Below are positions 12,831-38,914 of a DNA stretch of 64,000 nucleotides, in pieces. A model generated the notes under the pieces. It was not told the origin of the DNA. It ran no database searches and saw only the letters and a program-made list of their open reading frames with translations. The position numbers and the translations under genes were made by a program. Each line of letters begins with the position of its first letter. Position 1 is the stretch's first letter. The stretch covers positions 14,632,001 through 14,696,000 of the forward strand of contig OY740817.1 in the NCBI GenBank assembly GCA_963514005.1, written 5' to 3'. This stretch comes from Raja brachyura (taxonomy: Eukaryota).

Positions 12831-13546
12831 GGTTGATCATACGCTGAATAATCCAACCACATTTTTGTTTGGAAGTGGAAAGAAATAATAGAAATTGCAT
12901 TCATTGCAATGTGTAAAAAGAGTTGTGATACTGTATTATAGTTTTGCTGTATGTCTTTGTGGTATATATCATGTCTTGATTGGTGAATATGTTTAGTTTG
13001 TGACTTTATTTGAAACAGAAATAATATGTGAATACTTCATTGAGCATAATTCTGACTGGTAACTACGCACTTCATCCGAGCACATTATCGCACGCGTCAT
13101 GCAAGCCATCTTAAGTGACCACCTAAACTGTCATTTGGCAACTTAAAAAGCTGCCAAGGTTGCCCGGCTGACAACAGAGAAAAAAAATTAAGTGAGAGCC
13201 CTGCAAGGTGTATAATATTTTTGACACTGTTATAGGTCTTTCTAACATATGCTGTCACAGCGCACTGTAGTCTCCAAACAACCCTTCAGTAATTTTCCTT
13301 GCCCTCCATTTCAGAATAATAATGTTTTAAGCCAATAACTCGACACTAGCACTGGCAATAAATAAATAAATAAATAGCTAGGCTTTCCAGCCCCTTATCT
13401 CATTGGCCACGCTTGGCTGCAAATCGGTGTCAATCTGCTGGTAGTTTACATAACAGAAACTTATCCAGTAAAATAACCCCCAAAAGATAAATATTTCATG
13501 CAATAAATGACTTCATACAGCCAAAAGAGAGTCTCATGAGTTTGTA

Positions 13547-15172
13547 TTGAACATTTTCACTAAACATAAAAAAGACGGCGGATGCCGCATCATTATTGAT
13601 TTGACAGAACTGAATACTTTCGTGCAGTATGCCCACTTCAAAATGGAAACCTTTGTCACTGCCAAACAACTAGTTTCCAAGAGGTACTTCATGGCTTTCA
13701 TCGACCTAAAGGATGCATACTATTCAGTACCAATAGACAAGGATCATTGCAGATATTTGAAATTTGTCAGGATGGGGCAGCTCTGGCAGTATCAAGCGCT
13801 GCCTAATGGATTATCATCAGCACCCAGACTGTTTACCAAATTATTAAAACCAGCTTTAGCATGTCTCAGAAAACAAAAACATATTGTTATGGCGTACCTC
13901 GATGACATTTTAATCGTGGGGAAAACCTTGGAGTTGGCCAAATTGGCTGTCTCAGCCACTGAGCACTTATTTCAAAAACTGGGGTTTATCATCTATCGAG
14001 ATATATCAAAATTGATGCCTTCTACCACTATGGACTATTTGGAATTCACAATTGACTCTGTTCATATGTCTGTCACTTTGCCACCAAACAAAGCATCAGA
14101 CTTGATAGAAGCATGCAACAGCCTTACTGGCATCAGGAAACCGTCTATTCGGCAAGTAGCCAGGGTGATTGGGAAGCTTGTGGCTGCTTTCCCAGCCACA
14201 CAATTTGGGCCACTGCATTATCAAAACCTACAAAAATTGCAGCACTCAAAACACCATGAGGGCCATTTTGACAGGCCAATGCAATTACCAGGGAAAGCAA
14301 AATTGGAATTACAATGGTGGATGGACAATGCTCGACATTGCTCTAACCCCATCACAACCACAAATCCCTCAGTTATACTACAAACTGATGCCAGCGCACA
14401 AGGCTGGGGAGCAACTAATACCACCTCCAGTTGCGGTGGTAGATGGAATGCACATGAGTTAACCCTACTCCCGGCACTGGGAATTAATTATCTAGAAATG
14501 CTGGGAGCATTTCATGGACTCCGGGCTTACTGTTCGGACATGCACCATCTGCACGTACGCTTACAAATTGATAATACCATTGTGGTAGTTTATATCAAAC
14601 ATATGGGTGGAATACAGTCGATATCCTGTGACGAATTGGTCAACACAATCGGTTACTGGTGCATAGAAAGGAGCATTTGGATATCAGCCATTTACCTTCC
14701 AGGTAGGCTAAATACAGTGGCGGACACCAGGTCACGCAAGTTTAATGACAACACCAAATGGATGTTGGACAGCAAAGTGTTTGCCGATTTTATAGATCGG
14801 TATGGAACACCAGATATCGATCTTTTTGCATCCAGACTTAATCACCAAATATCAACATATGTTGCATGGGAACCAGACCCTGGGGCAGTAGCGATGGACG
14901 CTTTCTCGCTACACTGGGGGGATTTGTTTTTCTATGCATTTCCCCCCTTCTGCCTCATCAATCAGGTCTTGCAAAAAATTCGACAAGACTCTGCATCGGG
15001 TGTTCTGGTTGTGCCCGACTGGCCTACTCAACCATAGTTCCCTGTGGTACAGGACATGGTCCCAGAACCATGCATTCCAATACCTAAACGTCCGAGTTTA
15101 TTGGTACATCCTGTGACAGGGGAGAGTCACCCGTGCCATGACCGGATGAACCTATTGGTTTGCAGGGTTTGA
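13547..15172 (+). pseudogene. DIRS pol (RT YLDD, RNase H TDAS, methyltransferase-like DLFAS...FPPF), premature stop at 15035
   Basis: ORF 13547-15037 motifs; homologous to ORF 23953-25962. Confidence 0.9.
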
Positions 15173-16143
15173 AAAGGCCACTTCTGGATTATGGACTCTT
15201 GGACCGAACAATCAATATCATCACAGCATCGTGCAGGGAGTCCACCAGGAGACAGTGCCTCACTTACGTGAAGAAATGGGCGGTATTCTGTACCAAAACA
15301 AACACCACATATGACACAGCCACCGTCACGGAAGTGCTGGAGTTCCTGGCAAGCCTTCATTTCGATGAAGGTTTGAGCTACAGTGCCATCAACTGTGCCA
15401 GAAGTGCCCTATCCAATTATCTCTGGCGAGGTTGTGATCACCTTACAGTGGGGTCTCACCCTTTGGTGTTGAAACTAATGAGGGGAATATTTAATTCAAA
15501 TCCCCCCAGGCCTAGATATTCCCAGACCTGGGATATCGGCATTGTACTAACCATGCTCCGAGGGTGAGCACCAATAACGTCCCTTTCATTGGACAAATTG
15601 ACCTACAAAATGGTCATGCTGATGGCACTCGTGACGGCGCAACGGGTACAGTCCCTACACAAGCTAAGTATGGACGCCATGGTTATAACCAACAAAAAGG
15701 TAACTTTCTTTATACAGGGGTTACTCAAACAAGACAGGCCTGAATCATCTGGCCGAAAGTTGAATTTCCTGGCTTACCCCGTAGACAACCGTTTATGCCT
15801 AGTGACCCACCTTTTACACTATATGGAGGTCACCAAGTGTCTCAGGGGCACAGAAAGGGCTTTACTTATAACTCACAAACGTCCTCATCACAGAGTCACC
15901 GTGCAAACCATTTCAAGATGGTTAAGGGTGGTATTGAGTGCAGCGGGGGTGGACACTAATGTGTTTAAATCTCACTCCACCAGGGCTGCATCCACATCGG
16001 CGGCAAGGATGATGGAAGTTCCTATGGACCACATCCTTGCAATGGCGGGTTGGACAAATGAGAAAACCTTTCAGCGATGTTTTAATAAACCCATGGCCGC
16101 ACCTGAGACGTTTGCCGACAGAATATTAAGTTCTGTATTATAA
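15160..16143 (+). pseudogene. DIRS tyrosine recombinase, inactivated
   Basis: In-frame TGA at 15565 splits ORFs 15160-15567 and 15589-16143. R...HSTR...AGW are retained, but the catalytic Y region reads QRCF. Confidence 0.9.
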
Positions 16144-17151
16144 TTTCCCCGATGTAGGGGTATTATTATTTGGTATTGTTAAATAAATACCCTTTTGTTT
16201 TTCAGCACAATTTCATGTCTGAAATACGTTAACATACTTCCTCCATTTTTCATTATGGCAGTGTATGAGCATGGACTCATTCCAGGGCATGAAATCACAG
16301 AGCTTTGAAATCTTCATGTAGTCACTCACGTGACTCCGAAGTAAAATGGTAAGATTAAATGAGAACTTACCAGTTTGAAGTTTGATCTTTATTTTATGAA
16401 GAGTTACGATGAGGGATTACGTGCCCTCAGCTCCCAAACTCTCTATTATAAGGTCAACTGGTATGCTAGTTCTCTTATCTTACTATGTTAGTCAACTCTG
16501 TTATCTGTGATTTCACACCGCTGCTTTGAAGAATGTTGCGCATGCGTGCTGTCGGGGTCGTTTCGTAATCCCTCATCATAACTCCTCATAAAATAAAGAT
16601 CAAACTTCAAACTGGTAAATTCTCATTTAATCTTACTAGTAACATTACCTAAACTCTAGTTTGACTTCCTCTTTGGCTGACACTTTCTTTTTGTATTAAG
16701 CAAAACACAAACTGCTGCAGGAACTCAGCAAGTCAGGAAGCATCTCTGGAAGGAATGGACTGATGCCATGTCCGATTATGATCCTTCAACTGACCAATTA
16801 TCAATTTCCTCCACAGATGCTGCCTGAAAGACAATGGAGACACAAAGAATGTTGAGAAAATGTGTTGCTGAAATGTTGAGAAAAACACAAAGTGTTTCCA
16901 AAATCAGCAGTTCTTTGTCTCTCCATTGCATCACTCTCATTGATCATGTACTTTGGTTTTTGTACCATGATCTAGCTTACTTAGAATAACCAATAATTTA
17001 CAGCATATGTGTCGCTGTTGCTTCTCCTACAGCAAGTTAAAAAAAATTGTTCCATGTCAGATGACAATTAAGCACTCTTGAGAATTAAAATTCAGTCCAG
17101 AATCATTCCAGTTCTTGGCAGGATTCATTGGGTTGCATTCCAATAAATCCA

Positions 17152-22462: not shown

Positions 22463-22718
22463 TATATATTACGTTTTTTATGATAATTTTAATAGTAAGA
22501 TTAAACGAGAACTTACCAGTTTGAAGTTTGATCTTTATTTTATGAGGAGTTGCGATGAGGGATTTCGTGAAGAACCCGCCAGCACGCATGCGCGACATAC
22601 TTCAAAGCCGCGGTGTGGAATCACAGAAAAACCAAGCCAAGAAATGACTTGTTATAGTAAGATTAAAGAGACTCTAGTTACCAGTTGACTTTATGATCGA
22701 GGGTTGGGAGCGGAGGGC

Positions 22719-22830
22719 ACGAAATCCCTCATCGCAACTCCTCATAAAATAAAGATCAAACTTCAAACTGGTAAGTTCTCGTTTAATCTTACTATTTCAT
22801 TTCGGAGTCACGTGAGTGACTTCGTGAAGA
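22719..22830. other. DIRS internal complementary region (ICR)
   Basis: 22719-22795 is the reverse complement of 22492-22568. 22792-22830 is the reverse complement of about 27815-27852. Together they mirror the circle junction. Confidence 0.9.
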
Positions 22831-22975
22831 CTTCAAAGCTTCTGTGATTTCACGCCCTGGACAACGTCCATGCTATCACACACGCTACTGAAAAGGTGGA
22901 CAGCAGTAATCAATTTCCGTCACTGTTTCTCTGAAAAAATAATAATATTTATTAATAACAACAAGAAAGGACCCC

Positions 22976-23965
22976 TCACTGAGGGGGAACTGTATGTTCT
23001 CGGCCTGCATCCAGCACGGCTCCTGCGAACATTCCAGGTACGGTGACGGGTTTATTGTAAAACCGTTGAAAAGTGGCTTCACTGGCCCATCCCGCTGTGG
23101 CAAGTATCTGGTCCATGGGCACCTCCATGGCCTTTGCCGCCGATGTTGATGCTGCCCTGGTGGAATGGGATTTAAAAACATCAGTGTCAATACCTGCTTT
23201 GTTCAAGACGATCCTGAGCCATCGGGATATCGTCTGCACCGTCACTCTATGGTGAGATTTTTTGTGACTGATGAACAGGTATTGCTCCATTCCCCTTATT
23301 TTCCTCGTCACTTTGATATAGTGGCGGATATGGGTGGCTATGCATAGCCTAGCATCAGCGGGGTATGCTGGAAACTCCAGCTGCAGCCCTGTAAATCCAG
23401 GTCTATGCTGCTTGAGCAATTCATCAATGAAGAAAGTGACCCGTTCAGGGGTAGAGATCATTCTGTCGATCTTGGCCTTGTGAAGCGTTTGCACCCTTTG
23501 TGCTGAAGTAAGTGCCATCAACATCACCACCTTCAGGGTGAGTTTGTCCAATTCGAGCCCCGTCATGGGTGACCATGTTCTCAGCAGGGTCAGCACTTTG
23601 CCAATATCCCATGTGACGTTGTAACGGGGCCTCGGCGGGTTGGAATTAAATATCCCCCGCATAAGTTTGGAGACCAATTTATTGGATCCTACCTCAATAT
23701 TGAGGTAGGACGAGAGCGCACTCCTGGCGCTATTGATGGCACTATAGCTGAGATGTTGATCATGGTGTAGCCCCGCAAGAAATTCCAGCACATCTGTGAT
23801 GGAGACGGAGTCATATGCAACGTCCATGCGGCCACAATAGGATTCCCATTTCCTGATGTACGATAAGTACTGCCGTCTTGAGGACTCCCTGCATGATGCT
23901 CCCATGGTATCCATTGTCCTTGAAGATAGACCATACTGAAGTAGTGGCCTGTTCAGATCCTGCAA
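22976..23965 (-). CDS. DIRS ORF3 tyrosine recombinase
   Basis: 329 aa, open. SAQR, HSTR, AGW and RFY catalytic residues present. The ORF begins at TTG at a splice-acceptor-like site. Confidence 0.95.
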   Translation of the reverse strand: MQDLNRPLLQYGLSSRTMDTMGASCRESSRRQYLSYIRKWESYCGRMDVAYDSVSITDVLEFLAGLHHDQHLSYSAINSARSALSSYLNIEVGSNKLVSKLMRGIFNSNPPRPRYNVTWDIGKVLTLLRTWSPMTGLELDKLTLKVVMLMALTSAQRVQTLHKAKIDRMISTPERVTFFIDELLKQHRPGFTGLQLEFPAYPADARLCIATHIRHYIKVTRKIRGMEQYLFISHKKSHHRVTVQTISRWLRIVLNKAGIDTDVFKSHSTRAASTSAAKAMEVPMDQILATAGWASEATFQRFYNKPVTVPGMFAGAVLDAGREHTVPPQ

Positions 23966-25962
23966 GCCAATAGATTCAAATGACTATGGCAGGGGTGTGG
24001 TTCCCCTGTGGCAGGGTTCGTCACCAATTGTGGGCAACCCTCCAAGAGGACCCATGGTTGACTTATCATTCCAAGGACCACCGGATACCATGATTGCGTA
24101 GGCCAGTCGGGTATAATGAGGATGCCCTTGGCAGCATCGAGCTGGATTTTCCGCAATACCCGACTGATGAGGCAGAATGGAGGAAAGGCATAGAAGAACC
24201 ATTTCCCCCAGTCTAGCGAGAATGCGTCCATCGCCATTGCCCCAGGATCTGGCTCCCATGATACGTATGTTGGTACCTGATGGTTCAACCGTGACGCAAA
24301 AAGGTCAATATCCGGTTTACCAAATTTGGCTGTAATTTTGGTGAATATTTGGGGGTTCAACATCCACTCGATGTTGTCATTGAACTTCCGTGACCTGGTG
24401 TCCGCCACTGTATTGAGCTCACCTGGCAAGTAGGTAGCTGAGATCCAAATATTCCGTTGAATACACCAGAGCCAAATTGTGTTTGCCAATTCATTGCATG
24501 AAATTGACCTGGTACCGCCCATATGATTCAGATAAGCCACCGCAGTGGTATTGTCTATTTGGAGACAGACATGAGTGTTAGTCATGTTTGAACAATAGGC
24601 TCTAAGTCCGTGGAATGCTCCTAGCATCTCCAAATAGTTTATCCCTTGTGCTAACAACAAAGTAGCTTCAAGTGAATCCCATCTACCTCCACAACTGTTA
24701 TTGTTGTCTGTAGCTCCCCAGCCATGGGAGCTTGCATCTGTTTGCAAGTATACCTTTGGACGAGGCACAATGATGGGTTTAAATGAGTTATGGATATTGC
24801 CAATCCACCATAGTAACTCAAGTTTTGCCTTAACCGGCAACTGCATGGGTCTATCATAATGTCCAGCATTTAATTTTAATGCTGTTATTTTTGACCTTTG
24901 TAAATTCTGATAGTGTAAAGGTCCATATTGAGCAGCTGGAAATACTGCTACAATTTTGCCAATTACCCTGGCAGTTAATCTGATAGACGGTATACTGGCG
25001 CAGACCAGGTTCTTGCATGCTTGAAACACATCACCAACTTTGTTAGTTGGGATGGTGGTGATCATGCGATTGGAGTCTATTGTGAACCCCAAGTAGTCCA
25101 TGATCTGTGCGGGGAGGAACTTTGATTTGTCTGGATGGATTATAAACCCCATTTGTTGAAAAATTTCCACTGTGGCTGAAACCGCCAACTCTGCGGATTC
25201 CAGAGTGTGCCCAATTATCAGAATGTCATCCAAATAGGCCATGACCGTATGATTTTGTCTCCGCAGTGTAGATAACACTGGCTTGAGTAGTTTGGTGAAC
25301 AGTCTGGGGGCTGTAGTAAGCCCATTGGGCAATGCTTTGTATTGCCAAAGCTGATCCATCCAGGTAAACTTCAAGAACTTTCTATGATGTTTCCGAATGG
25401 ATACTGAATAGTATGCATCTTTTAAATCAATGCATGCCATGAAGCAGCCCTCCGAAATCAAAGATTTGGCTGTTTCAAATGTGTCCATTTTGAAATGGGT
25501 GTATTTTACAAAGGTATTCAAGTGAGTTAAATCTATAATGACCCGGCATCCACCGTCTTTTTTAGTTTTAGTAAATATATTAGACACAAATTCAACTGGT
25601 TCATGTGTGGTTCGTTCTATCACACCTTTGTCTTGTAAACTCAAGATTTCAGCATAGCCTTCTGCCAATTCTTTTTTGGAAAGTGCAAATTTGCGATTCG
25701 GCATATGCTGGGGTGGAGGCAATTGGCCATGAATAAACTCAATTTCATAACCCTGAATACTTTGCAAGATAAACTCATCTGAAGTGATGGTTTCCCAAGC
25801 CTCCTTAAATCCCCGTAATCTGCCCCCAATTCGTGAGGTTAGACATGCAAGTGCATGGAACCCAGACCCCCTTACCTTCATGGTTATCGGCGGTCCCTGG
25901 GATTTTTGGTGGGACGTGGAGGCGCTGGGTTTCGTGGTTGGTGCGGAATCCGCATCTTCCAT
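23953..25962 (-). CDS. DIRS ORF2 pol: RT - RNase H - DNA adenine methyltransferase-like domain
   Basis: 669 aa, open. IDLKDAY, LPNG, YLDD, TDAS, INYLE, DNTTA, DLFAS, YAFPPF. Confidence 0.95.
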   Translation of the reverse strand: MEDADSAPTTKPSASTSHQKSQGPPITMKVRGSGFHALACLTSRIGGRLRGFKEAWETITSDEFILQSIQGYEIEFIHGQLPPPQHMPNRKFALSKKELAEGYAEILSLQDKGVIERTTHEPVEFVSNIFTKTKKDGGCRVIIDLTHLNTFVKYTHFKMDTFETAKSLISEGCFMACIDLKDAYYSVSIRKHHRKFLKFTWMDQLWQYKALPNGLTTAPRLFTKLLKPVLSTLRRQNHTVMAYLDDILIIGHTLESAELAVSATVEIFQQMGFIIHPDKSKFLPAQIMDYLGFTIDSNRMITTIPTNKVGDVFQACKNLVCASIPSIRLTARVIGKIVAVFPAAQYGPLHYQNLQRSKITALKLNAGHYDRPMQLPVKAKLELLWWIGNIHNSFKPIIVPRPKVYLQTDASSHGWGATDNNNSCGGRWDSLEATLLLAQGINYLEMLGAFHGLRAYCSNMTNTHVCLQIDNTTAVAYLNHMGGTRSISCNELANTIWLWCIQRNIWISATYLPGELNTVADTRSRKFNDNIEWMLNPQIFTKITAKFGKPDIDLFASRLNHQVPTYVSWEPDPGAMAMDAFSLDWGKWFFYAFPPFCLISRVLRKIQLDAAKGILIIPDWPTQSWYPVVLGMISQPWVLLEGCPQLVTNPATGEPHPCHSHLNLLACRI

Positions 25963-27650
25963 GCTGGCCGCTGAGGGCCTAGTCCTAAAAAAGGCCTGGG
26001 CTGATGAGGCTGTTGATATTGAGGAGGTGCCGGAACGTAGGTCCTTGTTGGCCTGTCGGTTTGACCTCGTGGCCTGAAGTAAGGTGTCTTCTTGGCCGAA
26101 GGTCTGGCCACAAAATGTGGTCTCATCAGACCTATGGTTTTCGCATGGTCATCGAGCTCTTTGACCTGCTTTGGGAGGTCTTCCCCGAACAGCTGTCTAG
26201 GTGGGGGGGTAGGAGGTGCTCTGCATAGTCCCGCAAATTTGGGATTCAAGGAAGGTTTGATAATGCTCTTCCGGAAAGCGTTGATCTCGTACTGCGTATT
26301 GCAGAGCAGAGCTAGAGCATCCTCCTGTTCGGTGCTTAGATCAACCCCATCTACCGACTTTGCAAAAGCGGTGATCCCAGACGTAAGCAGTTTTAAAATC
26401 CTCTGCAGTTTCACTTCCTGCGCTCTGATGCCCGGGCTGATATTACCCCAGATTGGCATGTTCACAATCGGCACGTGGAGTGAATTGCAGTTCCCTGGAG
26501 CCTTGTGTCTCTCCATGGCCTTCGCAAGGACCTCCTCCTGCAATTGATGGTTGGTAAGATAATCTATGGTTGCGGCCAGTTTGATGTTGAGGGGTTGTCC
26601 TGATGATACGGGTAACCCGAATTTGGCTGCCACATCCAGCAGATCTTCCTGAGGGACCTCAGGTGCTGCTGGGGCATGTACCAGGATATCCTCCTCATCT
26701 GGTCTTATGTTGTCCATAGATGGGGACGGGGATATATCCATGAGTCCCCTGGAGCTGTGTGTGTCCTGTTTCTGATTGAGTAGAACTTGCTCCAATATCC
26801 TCTCCATACGATCCAAGCGCCCTTCATCGGGCGGGTGTGGGAGGTAAGAGGCCTCGTGCCCGAAGGAACTCCTGAGGCTTCGATCATCAGTCCGTACCTC
26901 GTCGAGGTAATATCGGTACTGTGATGATGTGTCGCTACCAGCCGCCTCGGCGAAGCTGAGCGATTCCCGCGCGGACCTGCTCGAGCGCCTCCTCTTCGCT
27001 GAGCTGGACCCGGCTGCCTCAAAGGGCATGGGTGGGGAGAGGTCGGCACCTGACGCCGCAGCGTGGTGACCCGACGTCCGCACGGGCTTGCCGACTGTCC
27101 TAAATCTGGACCCAGACGGCGTACGGTCCCGACCTGCCCCCAGCGGGGGAAGCGGTGACCTAGGCGAGGCTCCACCCTTGTGACTCCTCCTGGTCCCTCT
27201 GGGTGGTGAGTCGACACTGGCCCTTCTTGGTCTGCCAGTGGACTCGGGCCTGCCTGATTCACCAGACCACTTCCTAGTGGCTCCTGGTGAGACCTCAACC
27301 CGCGAAGGGCTAGGTAGTGGAATTGTATCCCTGCCTCCTTCAAGAGGGCTCAGGGAGAAGGGCCGTGCATCAGCACGCGAATCCCTTTTACTTGTCTCTG
27401 CAAACGACCCAGTGGGTGAGAGAGAGATGGAGTCAGGATGCACCTGCTCCGGCGCTGTACCGACTGATTGTTCTGCAGGTACCCCGCTAGGGCATAGCTG
27501 CGTCGGTAAACCGGATCCTGTGAATACAGGGCTCCCCGGCTTGCGCGCCTTCTTCCCGGCCCGTCCTCCTGCCGTGGAGGGGGGCTCCGGGTTGGGTTGC
27601 CGACAACTCCTTGCAGAAGTTTTACGGCCTTTACTTTTCCTACTGTCCAT
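25884..27650 (-). CDS. DIRS ORF1 gag-like protein
   Basis: Open frame 25884-27698 with first ATG at 27650 (MDSRKSK). Disordered N-terminus, helical core (PGNCNSLHVPIVNMPIW...LFGEDL), basic Pro-rich tail. Confidence 0.85.
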   Translation of the reverse strand: MDSRKSKGRKTSARSCRQPNPEPPSTAGGRAGKKARKPGSPVFTGSGLPTQLCPSGVPAEQSVGTAPEQVHPDSISLSPTGSFAETSKRDSRADARPFSLSPLEGGRDTIPLPSPSRVEVSPGATRKWSGESGRPESTGRPRRASVDSPPRGTRRSHKGGASPRSPLPPLGAGRDRTPSGSRFRTVGKPVRTSGHHAAASGADLSPPMPFEAAGSSSAKRRRSSRSARESLSFAEAAGSDTSSQYRYYLDEVRTDDRSLRSSFGHEASYLPHPPDEGRLDRMERILEQVLLNQKQDTHSSRGLMDISPSPSMDNIRPDEEDILVHAPAAPEVPQEDLLDVAAKFGLPVSSGQPLNIKLAATIDYLTNHQLQEEVLAKAMERHKAPGNCNSLHVPIVNMPIWGNISPGIRAQEVKLQRILKLLTSGITAFAKSVDGVDLSTEQEDALALLCNTQYEINAFRKSIIKPSLNPKFAGLCRAPPTPPPRQLFGEDLPKQVKELDDHAKTIGLMRPHFVARPSAKKTPYFRPRGQTDRPTRTYVPAPPQYQQPHQPRPFLGLGPQRPAWKMRIPHQPRNPAPPRPTKNPRDRR

Positions 27651-27883
27651 GTCTCTGTGGAAGAAAACACAATTATTCACACAGAACAACCAACTCAAGG
27701 TTGTTAGTACTTACCTGAGTGGCCCTTATGAAGGGCTGGTGATGAGCCGCGCTCCTCTCCAGCCGTCGACTGCAATGCGAGCGACGATATGCCGCGCATG
27801 CGTGCTGGCGGGTTCTTCACGAAGTCACTCACGTGACTCCGAAATGAAATAGAAGTATTTTAATTTGACATCCTTCCCCACAA

Positions 27884-37437: not shown

Positions 37438-38680
37438 ATTCAATTCAATTCAATTCAACTTTAATGTCATTGCACAAATACAAGTGTAGGTACAACGAAA
37501 TGCAGTTTAGCGTCGTTCGTAGTGATAGCAATATGGAAAAATAAATACAGAATGCAGACAATGTGGACGGAGAGACTGGAGAAATCTATCAGCGGGACTC
37601 CGAGTTCAGCAGTGTGATGGTGTTATTGTAGAAGCTGTTCCTCATCCTACTAGTGCGGGACATGAGGCTCCTGTACCGCCTCCCTGATGGTAGGAGGGCA
37701 AACAGTCCATGGTTAGGGTGTGAGGGGTCCTTGATGATCTTCCCGGCCCATTTCAGACACCGTTTATGGTGGAGGGCATCCATGGGAGGGAGTGGGGCAC
37801 CGATGATGTACTGGGCGGTTTTCACCACCCGTTGTAGTGCCTTCCTATCTGCCACGGTGCAACTGCTGTACCATACCGTAAAGCAGGTGGTCAGGATGCT
37901 TTCGATGGTACAGCGGTAAAGGTTGGTCAGGATCTGGGGGGACAGGTGGGCTTTTTTGAGCCTCCTCAGAAAGTAAAGGCGCTGCTGTGCCTTTTTGATC
38001 AGCTTTGAGGTGTTGAGGGACCAGGACAGATCCTCCGAGATGTGTACCCCGAGGAATTTGTAGTTGGAGACCCGCTCCACCTCAGTCCCGTTTATATGGA
38101 TGGGGGTGTGTCTGCCCCCTCTCTTCTTCCTAAAGTCAACAATGATTTCCTTCGTCTTCTGGGAGTTGAGGACGAGGTTATTGTTGGCACACCAGGTCAG
38201 GTGCTGGACCTCCTCCCTGTAGGCTGATTCGTCGTTGTCACTGATCAGTCCTACCACCGTGGTGTCGTCGGCAAATTTTATGATGGTGTTGGAGCCATAC
38301 TTAGGGATGCAGTCATGCGTGAAGAGGGAGTAGAGGAGAGGGCTGAGCACACAGCCCTGTGGCACGCCGGTGTTCAGTGTTATAGTGGAGGAGGTGAGGT
38401 TGTTGACCCTAACAGACTGTGGTCTGTTAGTGAGGAAATCCAGTGTCCAATTGCAGAGGGAGGTGGAGATGCCAAGACCGCTGAGTTTGGTGATCAAGCT
38501 CGCGGGTATGACAGTGTTAAAGGCGGAGCTGAAGTCAATAAACAGCAGCCTGATGTAGGTGTTGTTGCTGTCCAGGTGGGTCAGGGCAGAGTGTAGGGCC
38601 GCCGATATGGCGTCCTCTGTAGACCTGTTTGTCCAGTAGGCAAATTGGTGGGAGTCCAGTGTGGGGGGGAGGCTGGCTTT
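37438..38680 (-). mobile_element. Rex1/Babar LINE, 5'-truncated, open RT ORF
   Basis: ORF 37589-38722 with [18 protein letters not shown] and KFADD; (ATTGA)n tail; nested in a CR1 3' end. Confidence 0.95.
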
Positions 38681-38914
38681 GAGAATCAAGAATCTATCTA
38701 TCTCTGTGGCAAAGAATTTCACAGATTCACCACCCTCTGACTAAATAAATTCCTTCTCATCTCCTTCCTAAAGGAATGTCCTTTAATTCTGAGGCTTTGA
38801 CCTCTTGTCCTAGATTCACCCACTGGTGGAAACATCCTCTCCACATCCACTCTATCCAGGCCTTTCACCATTCTGTACGTTTCTGTATGATTCTGTGCTT
38901 TTCACCATTCTGTA

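Follow-up and report, generated by a model that had tools for sequence, protein, structure and literature searches.

A predicted phase-0 intron spanning pol and a candidate -1 frameshift site in a DIRS1-like retrotransposon of Raja brachyura

The window analysed here, a stretch of 64,000 nucleotides from Raja brachyura, contains an intact DIRS1-like retrotransposon with reverse transcriptase, methyltransferase, recombinase, inverted termini and ATT ends. The element is read on the minus strand, and all coordinates given are positions in this window. The following parts were determined:

22491..27850, minus strand: DIRS1-like retrotransposon of 5360 bp with three intact frames and ATT at both ends
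27788..27850, minus strand: left terminus with the left inverted repeat, from inverted-repeat comparison
25884..27650, minus strand: gag-like ORF of 588 codons, with a 3' half resembling ORF 1 in related elements
23953..25881, minus strand: pol frame from ATG to stop (RVT_1, E 5.7e-22; Dam, E 7.7e-4)
22976..23959, minus strand: tyrosine recombinase exon of 327 codons (Phage_integrase, 1.2e-7; Phage_int_SAM_4, 5.7e-6)
22948..22953, minus strand: AATAAA, candidate polyA signal 3' of the recombinase stop
22718..22830, minus strand: internal complementary region, complementary to both termini
22491..22599, minus strand: right terminus, from inverted-repeat comparison
13511..16636, plus strand: second DIRS copy, 5'-truncated and decayed, about 69% identical, with an acceptor ending at 15165 and without gag or donor

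Among the termini and the internal complementary region, inverted arms of 79, 46 and 44 nt were found, while no long direct repeat of the kind forming the split direct repeats of Ngaro and PAT elements was found in the element. The Dam match of 7.7e-4 is weaker than the Pfam cut-off and sits at the place expected for the methyltransferase, at the end of pol. For the region after the reverse transcriptase (RT), a Pfam search up to an E of 5 gave no RNase H match; a TDAS...LE...DN motif, which we take to be that of RNase H, is visible there in the pol translation. The Pfam search with the gag-like ORF was without any match. For the element, the nearest named protein (54%) comes from a skate, in line with a cartilaginous fish as the probable host. 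Since the 30 genomic copies fetched (L001-L030) are 99.1-100% identical over 3.4 kb, the family is regarded as young. The exact donor context described below occurs at 817 genomic sites with GT and at 1 with GC. Elsewhere in the window, a stop-free frame of 383 codons lies at 37589-38740 on the minus strand. Near-identical recombinase copies about 70-100 kb apart at G000:C14:44580567-45054757 suggest a large tandem duplication.

The sites that bear on the expression of pol and recombinase are as follows (a slash marks the exon-intron boundary):

27655..27714, minus strand: predicted GT-AG intron-like segment of 60 nt in the 5' leader; the gag ATG follows after 4 nt
25986..25992, minus strand: heptamer U_UUU_UUA, in phase with gag; predicted site of a -1 shift to the pol frame
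25966..25979, minus strand: small hairpin 6 nt past the heptamer, which may act as a stimulator but is weak in this copy (z -0.8)
25876..25985, minus strand: pol-frame linker overlapping the gag end, with ATGs at 25962 and 25881
25870..25878, minus strand: predicted splice donor AAG/GTAAGG, phase 0 in the pol frame, 8 nt past the gag stop (7.5 bits)
23960..25875, minus strand: predicted optional intron of 1916 nt, comprising the RT, putative RNase H and methyltransferase coding region
23960..23975, minus strand: predicted splice acceptor (4.1 bits) with a modest pyrimidine tract, the top score within 360 nt
23903..23914, minus strand: two in-frame recombinase ATGs in the sequence, exon codons 16 and 19, rival starts

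A first-pass annotation had proposed a donor at 25875 and an acceptor at 23960, by whose use M-K is fused in frame to DLNRPLLQYG, and every coordinate of this proposal holds, with 1916 nt in between. On the minus strand, the gag stop (25886-25884) is followed by CC, the ATG at 25881, AAG and GTAAGG. The first intron base would be 25875 and the last 23960 (…TTGCAG), leaving 23959 as the first exon base, and the GT...AG ends stand in U2 consensus context. With the ATG at 25881 shared with the pol frame, the predicted intron extends from pol codon 3 to 3 codons before the pol stop, and the acceptor falls within the last codons of pol (L-A-C-R). The second copy was likewise described correctly as having an acceptor at 15165 in the same phase and no ATG for more than 100 codons: its TTGCAG ends at 15165 and the first in-frame ATG is codon 105. 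Since this copy is decayed, with a stop at codon 134 and no donor motif upstream within the window, it informs on the acceptor only. The leader segment at 27655-27714 shows strong signals, which are kept in the genomic copies inspected, and similar signals are present in sister subfamilies.

Conservation of the two sites was checked across DIRS families, where the donor was found to be enriched and phase-locked and the acceptor to be biased in its phase. For the sample, 22 copies were taken from this genome and, of 168 metagenome loci, the best 80. Loci with too little sequence upstream of pol were left out, as were 7 copies with a rearrangement at the site; the 61 loci that were kept fall into 35 families at below 80% identity (median 49% nucleotide identity), with one family, L058 and L072, counted as two. 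When scores of 4 bits or more within 120 nt upstream of the GGRL motif of pol were counted, a donor was present in 26 of the 35 families, in phase 0 in 23 of these 26, and below that score in 9 of the 35. In the controls the same score was reached in 17 of 452 windows from the pol body and 38 of 452 windows from the reverse strand (Fisher p 2e-24, for phylogenetically non-independent families and with generic splice matrices). The enrichment of the donor is about 20-fold. The three families with an out-of-phase donor each have an in-phase GT nearby. The donor lies 9-90 nt from GGRL, inside an otherwise unconserved linker, and in 29 of 33 families it follows the gag stop by 2-41 nt, a stop-to-donor distance that usually escapes nonsense-mediated decay. 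Counts of codon choice at donor and acceptor were set aside as partly circular, the sites having been picked by score; one locus (L139) was also offset by one codon.

Two further observations concern the donor region. An intact subfamily with 83% identity to that of this element (L031/L042, G000:C26:7154316) carries a GC donor, AAG/GCAAGC, in the same place. Furthermore, some elements (L151, L152 and the proteins P0131-P0136, P0141 and P0142) have very long recombinase frames with an overlap of 220-700 codons; these are without a donor or a clear slippery site and may take another route.

For the acceptor, 51 rows were compared, 6 having been dropped as duplicates or as deleted or long-overlap copies, and short loci having been added without dereplication. 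Sites of at least 3 bits near the recombinase start fell 57 times into the recombinase phase and 11 times into each of the others, compared to 14, 22 and 33 by phase for the same score in the RT body. At the site of this element an acceptor was found in 14 of the 51 rows, in which the recombinase frame closes 5-14 codons upstream. Of the remaining 37 rows, 24 have a recombinase frame open for 60-121 codons, most of them with an in-phase acceptor at -201 to -216; in the clades with this site the frame is open for 67-106 codons, and in other clades an in-phase site at -42 goes along with a frame closing 14-23 codons upstream. As judged from these predicted sites, the open length of the recombinase frame tracks the acceptor position. 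Because the acceptor sits in pol codons, pol coding contributes to its conservation, and some rows (L131, L140, L154) are without a clear acceptor. A second in-phase acceptor-like site about 330 nt before the recombinase start was noticed in nine loci (L061, L066, L079, L082, L091, L099, L103, L134 and L135); it lies in the methyltransferase region with recombinase-frame stops downstream and is perhaps driven by coding.

Two protein models of the sea urchin Diadema antillarum (XP_071483612.1 and XP_071502116.1), both automatic NCBI models, combine gag pieces, an AFFR linker and the recombinase. Their linker is free of methionine, and the join is at the residue homologous to the first one after the acceptor described here. 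Of the 129 homologous proteins that are extended at the N-terminus, these two sea-urchin models alone show the linker join.

In the genome itself, the junction pattern gave 130 matches compared to 11 for the control. Of the 45 distinct loci inspected, 26 are gag-recombinase copies without pol, joined at the exact predicted bases, and the other 19 are chance matches. The right ends of four pol-less copies were inspected, and the terminus is kept in all four. Two types of exon ends occur among the 26 copies (24 of one, 2 of another), and each type has pol-bearing relatives of its own, which it matches up to the junction from either side. A single clade for both types was rejected for the gag and recombinase segments (p-AU 6e-6, 1e-51 and 2e-4) in a test that left out 3 rearranged rows. 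Since a foreign 5' part, in which L228 retains a predicted leader intron, is common to both, the two pol-less lineages are not fully independent. All belong to sister subfamilies with 71-83% identity to this copy; the genomic pattern search found no pol-less copies of this element's exact subfamily.

Several other candidates were rejected. A loss of a second 5' intron in the pol-less copies turned out to be a different 5' gag part. Of the matches in which a letter other than G follows the exon end, 30 of 168 proved without exception to be old copies with a mutated donor, five of five acceptor-side matches were point changes, and two pol-deleted metagenome loci (L080, L100) were ordinary internal deletions. 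A search of viral contigs gave one match, which was unrelated. Contigs from seven sequencing runs that look like DNA were aligned, four runs to this element and four to a related family with one run used for both; the predicted join was not among the joints listed, a comparison that does not bear on splicing. Some pol-less copies (L228, L234-L240, L248) are chimeras, with a 5' gag part containing internal repeats like those of the L246 family and a 3' part from other subfamilies. One metagenome contig (L112) carries two head-to-head copies of one element, which may be an assembly artefact.

With the conservation in distant families, the exact pol-less copies and the two NCBI models, the proposal that the recombinase is made from a spliced mRNA gained support, and the phase-0 removal of pol as an intron is very probably real. 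The second part of the proposal, a start codon supplied by the splice, is weaker than the splice itself and did not stand as a general rule. A pol-frame ATG before the donor is absent in 21 of 30 families from outside this genome, so that in those families such a start is available neither to pol nor to a spliced recombinase. All five family groups of this genome retain the ATG that follows the gag stop, and therefore the M-K start may be an additional route here.

A more general entry into the linker is suggested by the end of gag. Relative to gag, pol is in the -1 frame, and the two overlap at the gag end; within this overlap a slippery heptamer in gag phase is present in 30 of 33 families, at a rate of 41 per 1749 overlap codons compared to 28 per 8985 elsewhere in gag, i.e. 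7.5 times as often. In this element's family, U_UUU_UUA is found in 30 of 30 young copies. Across families the heptamer types interchange (20 UUUUUUA, 6 UUUAAAC and 3 AAAAAAC), all of which are known from HIV-1, coronaviruses and other elements. This interchange favours slippage over the assumption that the U-rich run is an acceptor. A fold downstream of the heptamer with z below -1.5 was obtained in 11 of 29 families compared to 5 of 29 controls, using a fold model without pseudoknots, and hairpins after a short spacer occur in several families.

Another explanation takes the splice as real and makes the ATG at 25881 the start codon of both recombinase and pol, reached either by re-initiation past the gag stop or by a gag-skipping splice from 27714 to the AG at 25985. 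It would account for the motif TAA-CC-ATG-RAG/GT, which the five family groups of this genome have all retained although their pol identity is about 55-67%, and which offers a good start context. In addition, the U-rich heptamer with its AG can also be read as an acceptor, and a strong leader donor is present. However, the 21 outside families lack such an ATG, nine families with UUUAAAC or AAAAAAC offer no AG, and re-initiation after an ORF of 588 codons is inefficient. A start at 25881 can consequently hold for this clade only, and we consider it rather unlikely.

A further explanation dispenses with a regulated splice. The recombinase would start at its own ATG (23914 or 23905) or at a near-cognate codon, the apparent sites would be by-products of pol coding, and the pol-less copies would be deletions caused by template switching at short homology. 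Indeed, codons 16 and 19 of the recombinase exon are in-frame ATGs in this copy, an ATG stands two codons ahead of the site in many invertebrate families, the acceptor is part of the L-A-C-R codons, and plain internal deletions do exist, as the two rejected metagenome loci demonstrate. The junction ends share the four letters AG/GT, with 7 of 9 letters alike, and because of this short homology a template switch of the reverse transcriptase could mimic the join. Of 25 relatives of the larger type that carry pol, 24 have an altered acceptor, with which even 7 letters would be shared; these 24 relatives are also altered 6 nt downstream, a change that the pol-less copies are without, and the sole examined relative with an intact acceptor (L299) matches the pol-less copies downstream. 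Counting pairs at least 1 kb apart, a full copy contains about 38,600 perfect 4-letter, 13,700 7-of-9 and 690 perfect 7-letter homologies. Given thousands of equal short homologies, two joins at this place can hardly be put down to template switching alone, and the same numbers make a chance use of this pair in two lineages unlikely. Moreover, the donor is enriched and phase-locked though it lies in an unconserved linker at variable distance, and in intact young relatives (L061-L065, L079) no ATG occurs before codon 105. Expression of the recombinase without any regulated splice is thus judged improbable.

The pol-bearing subfamily with the altered acceptor (L266-L301) deserves mention of its own, as the change also puts a stop into pol in 24 of the 25 copies examined; it is probably a non-autonomous lineage that went on spreading.

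For Ngaro, Poulter and Butler 2015 (via the available sections of PMC13003380) proposed that a frameshift where the pol and recombinase frames overlap appends the recombinase to the C-terminus of Pol. This would be compatible with the short overlap of about 10 codons here, but it is highly improbable for the present element, since it leaves the donor, the acceptor phase and the exact pol-less copies unexplained and by-eye inspection only revealed no slippery heptamer in that overlap.

Altogether, the sequence comparisons make it fairly probable that an optional in-phase pol intron is combined with a -1 frameshift, giving Gag-Pol from unspliced and Gag-recombinase from spliced RNA. Within this model, -1 slippage near the gag end would lead ribosomes into the pol-frame linker. 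The unspliced RNA would yield Gag and Gag-Pol and would also serve as the template for full-length copies, which need an RNA retaining pol, while the spliced RNA would yield Gag and a Gag-linker-recombinase protein. Non-slipping ribosomes would end at the gag stop and produce Gag from either RNA. The fusion of Gag and recombinase by frameshifting is probably the main route; a second, Gag-free start may be provided, in the families of this genome, by the ATG that follows the gag stop. At times the spliced RNA would be reverse-transcribed and thereby found pol-less families. We also lean slightly towards a common two-switch plan of animal DIRS1-like elements, in which a frameshift into the linker is combined with pol splicing, the acceptor has moved between clades while its phase was kept, and spliced RNAs have founded pol-less families.

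If this model is true, the integration enzyme would be packaged while fused to Gag, and the balance between copying and integration would be set by the splicing of the host. For these elements, which are abundant in animals, intron-marker assays, repeat libraries and gene models would then misplace the start of the recombinase, and a candidate origin would be at hand for one type of non-autonomous DIRS. The model names exact sites that can be tested.

Compared with known systems, the element resembles the DIRS1-like elements of PMC3266345, PMC9210276 and PMC7192593, as far as covered by the sections available, in its gag-like ORF, pol (RT, putative RH and MT) and recombinase, the short pol/recombinase overlap, the inverted termini, the internal complementary region and the ATT ends. 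The available part of PMC3266345 defines this class by inverted termini, an internal complementary region and NTT ends. In the same sections of the three papers no description of the translation mode of the three DIRS frames was found; by word counts, 'splic' and 'intron' are absent from PMC3266345, and 'splic', 'intron' and 'frameshift' from PMC9210276. A literature search covering titles and the starts of abstracts, with Repbase reports and the two main reviews outside its scope, found no statement of pol splicing. The finding is a conserved feature of an already known class, the DIRS1-like elements, and it may have been mentioned before. The recombinase frame of Ngaro likewise overlaps the end of pol (available sections of PMC13003380, quoting Poulter and Butler 2015), but Ngaro differs, according to the same sections, by split direct repeats, the lack of an MT domain and a proposed pol-to-recombinase frameshift instead of splicing. 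With Ty1/Copia, the element would share alternative splicing within a retroelement that sets a protein ratio (available sections of PMC5580714). Unlike in Ty1/Copia, the predicted intron here is pol, and its removal would bring the downstream recombinase into frame. In Ty1/Copia, a spliced subgenomic RNA reportedly makes Gag alone. Retroviruses combine a U_UUU_UUA-type slippery site and a pol gene in the -1 frame with an env gene that is reached by splicing out pol, using a leader donor and env's own start. Unlike for retroviral env, the predicted donor of the present element lies 3' of the frameshift site and the gag stop, and the 3' gene encodes the integration enzyme, which would be made as a Gag fusion.
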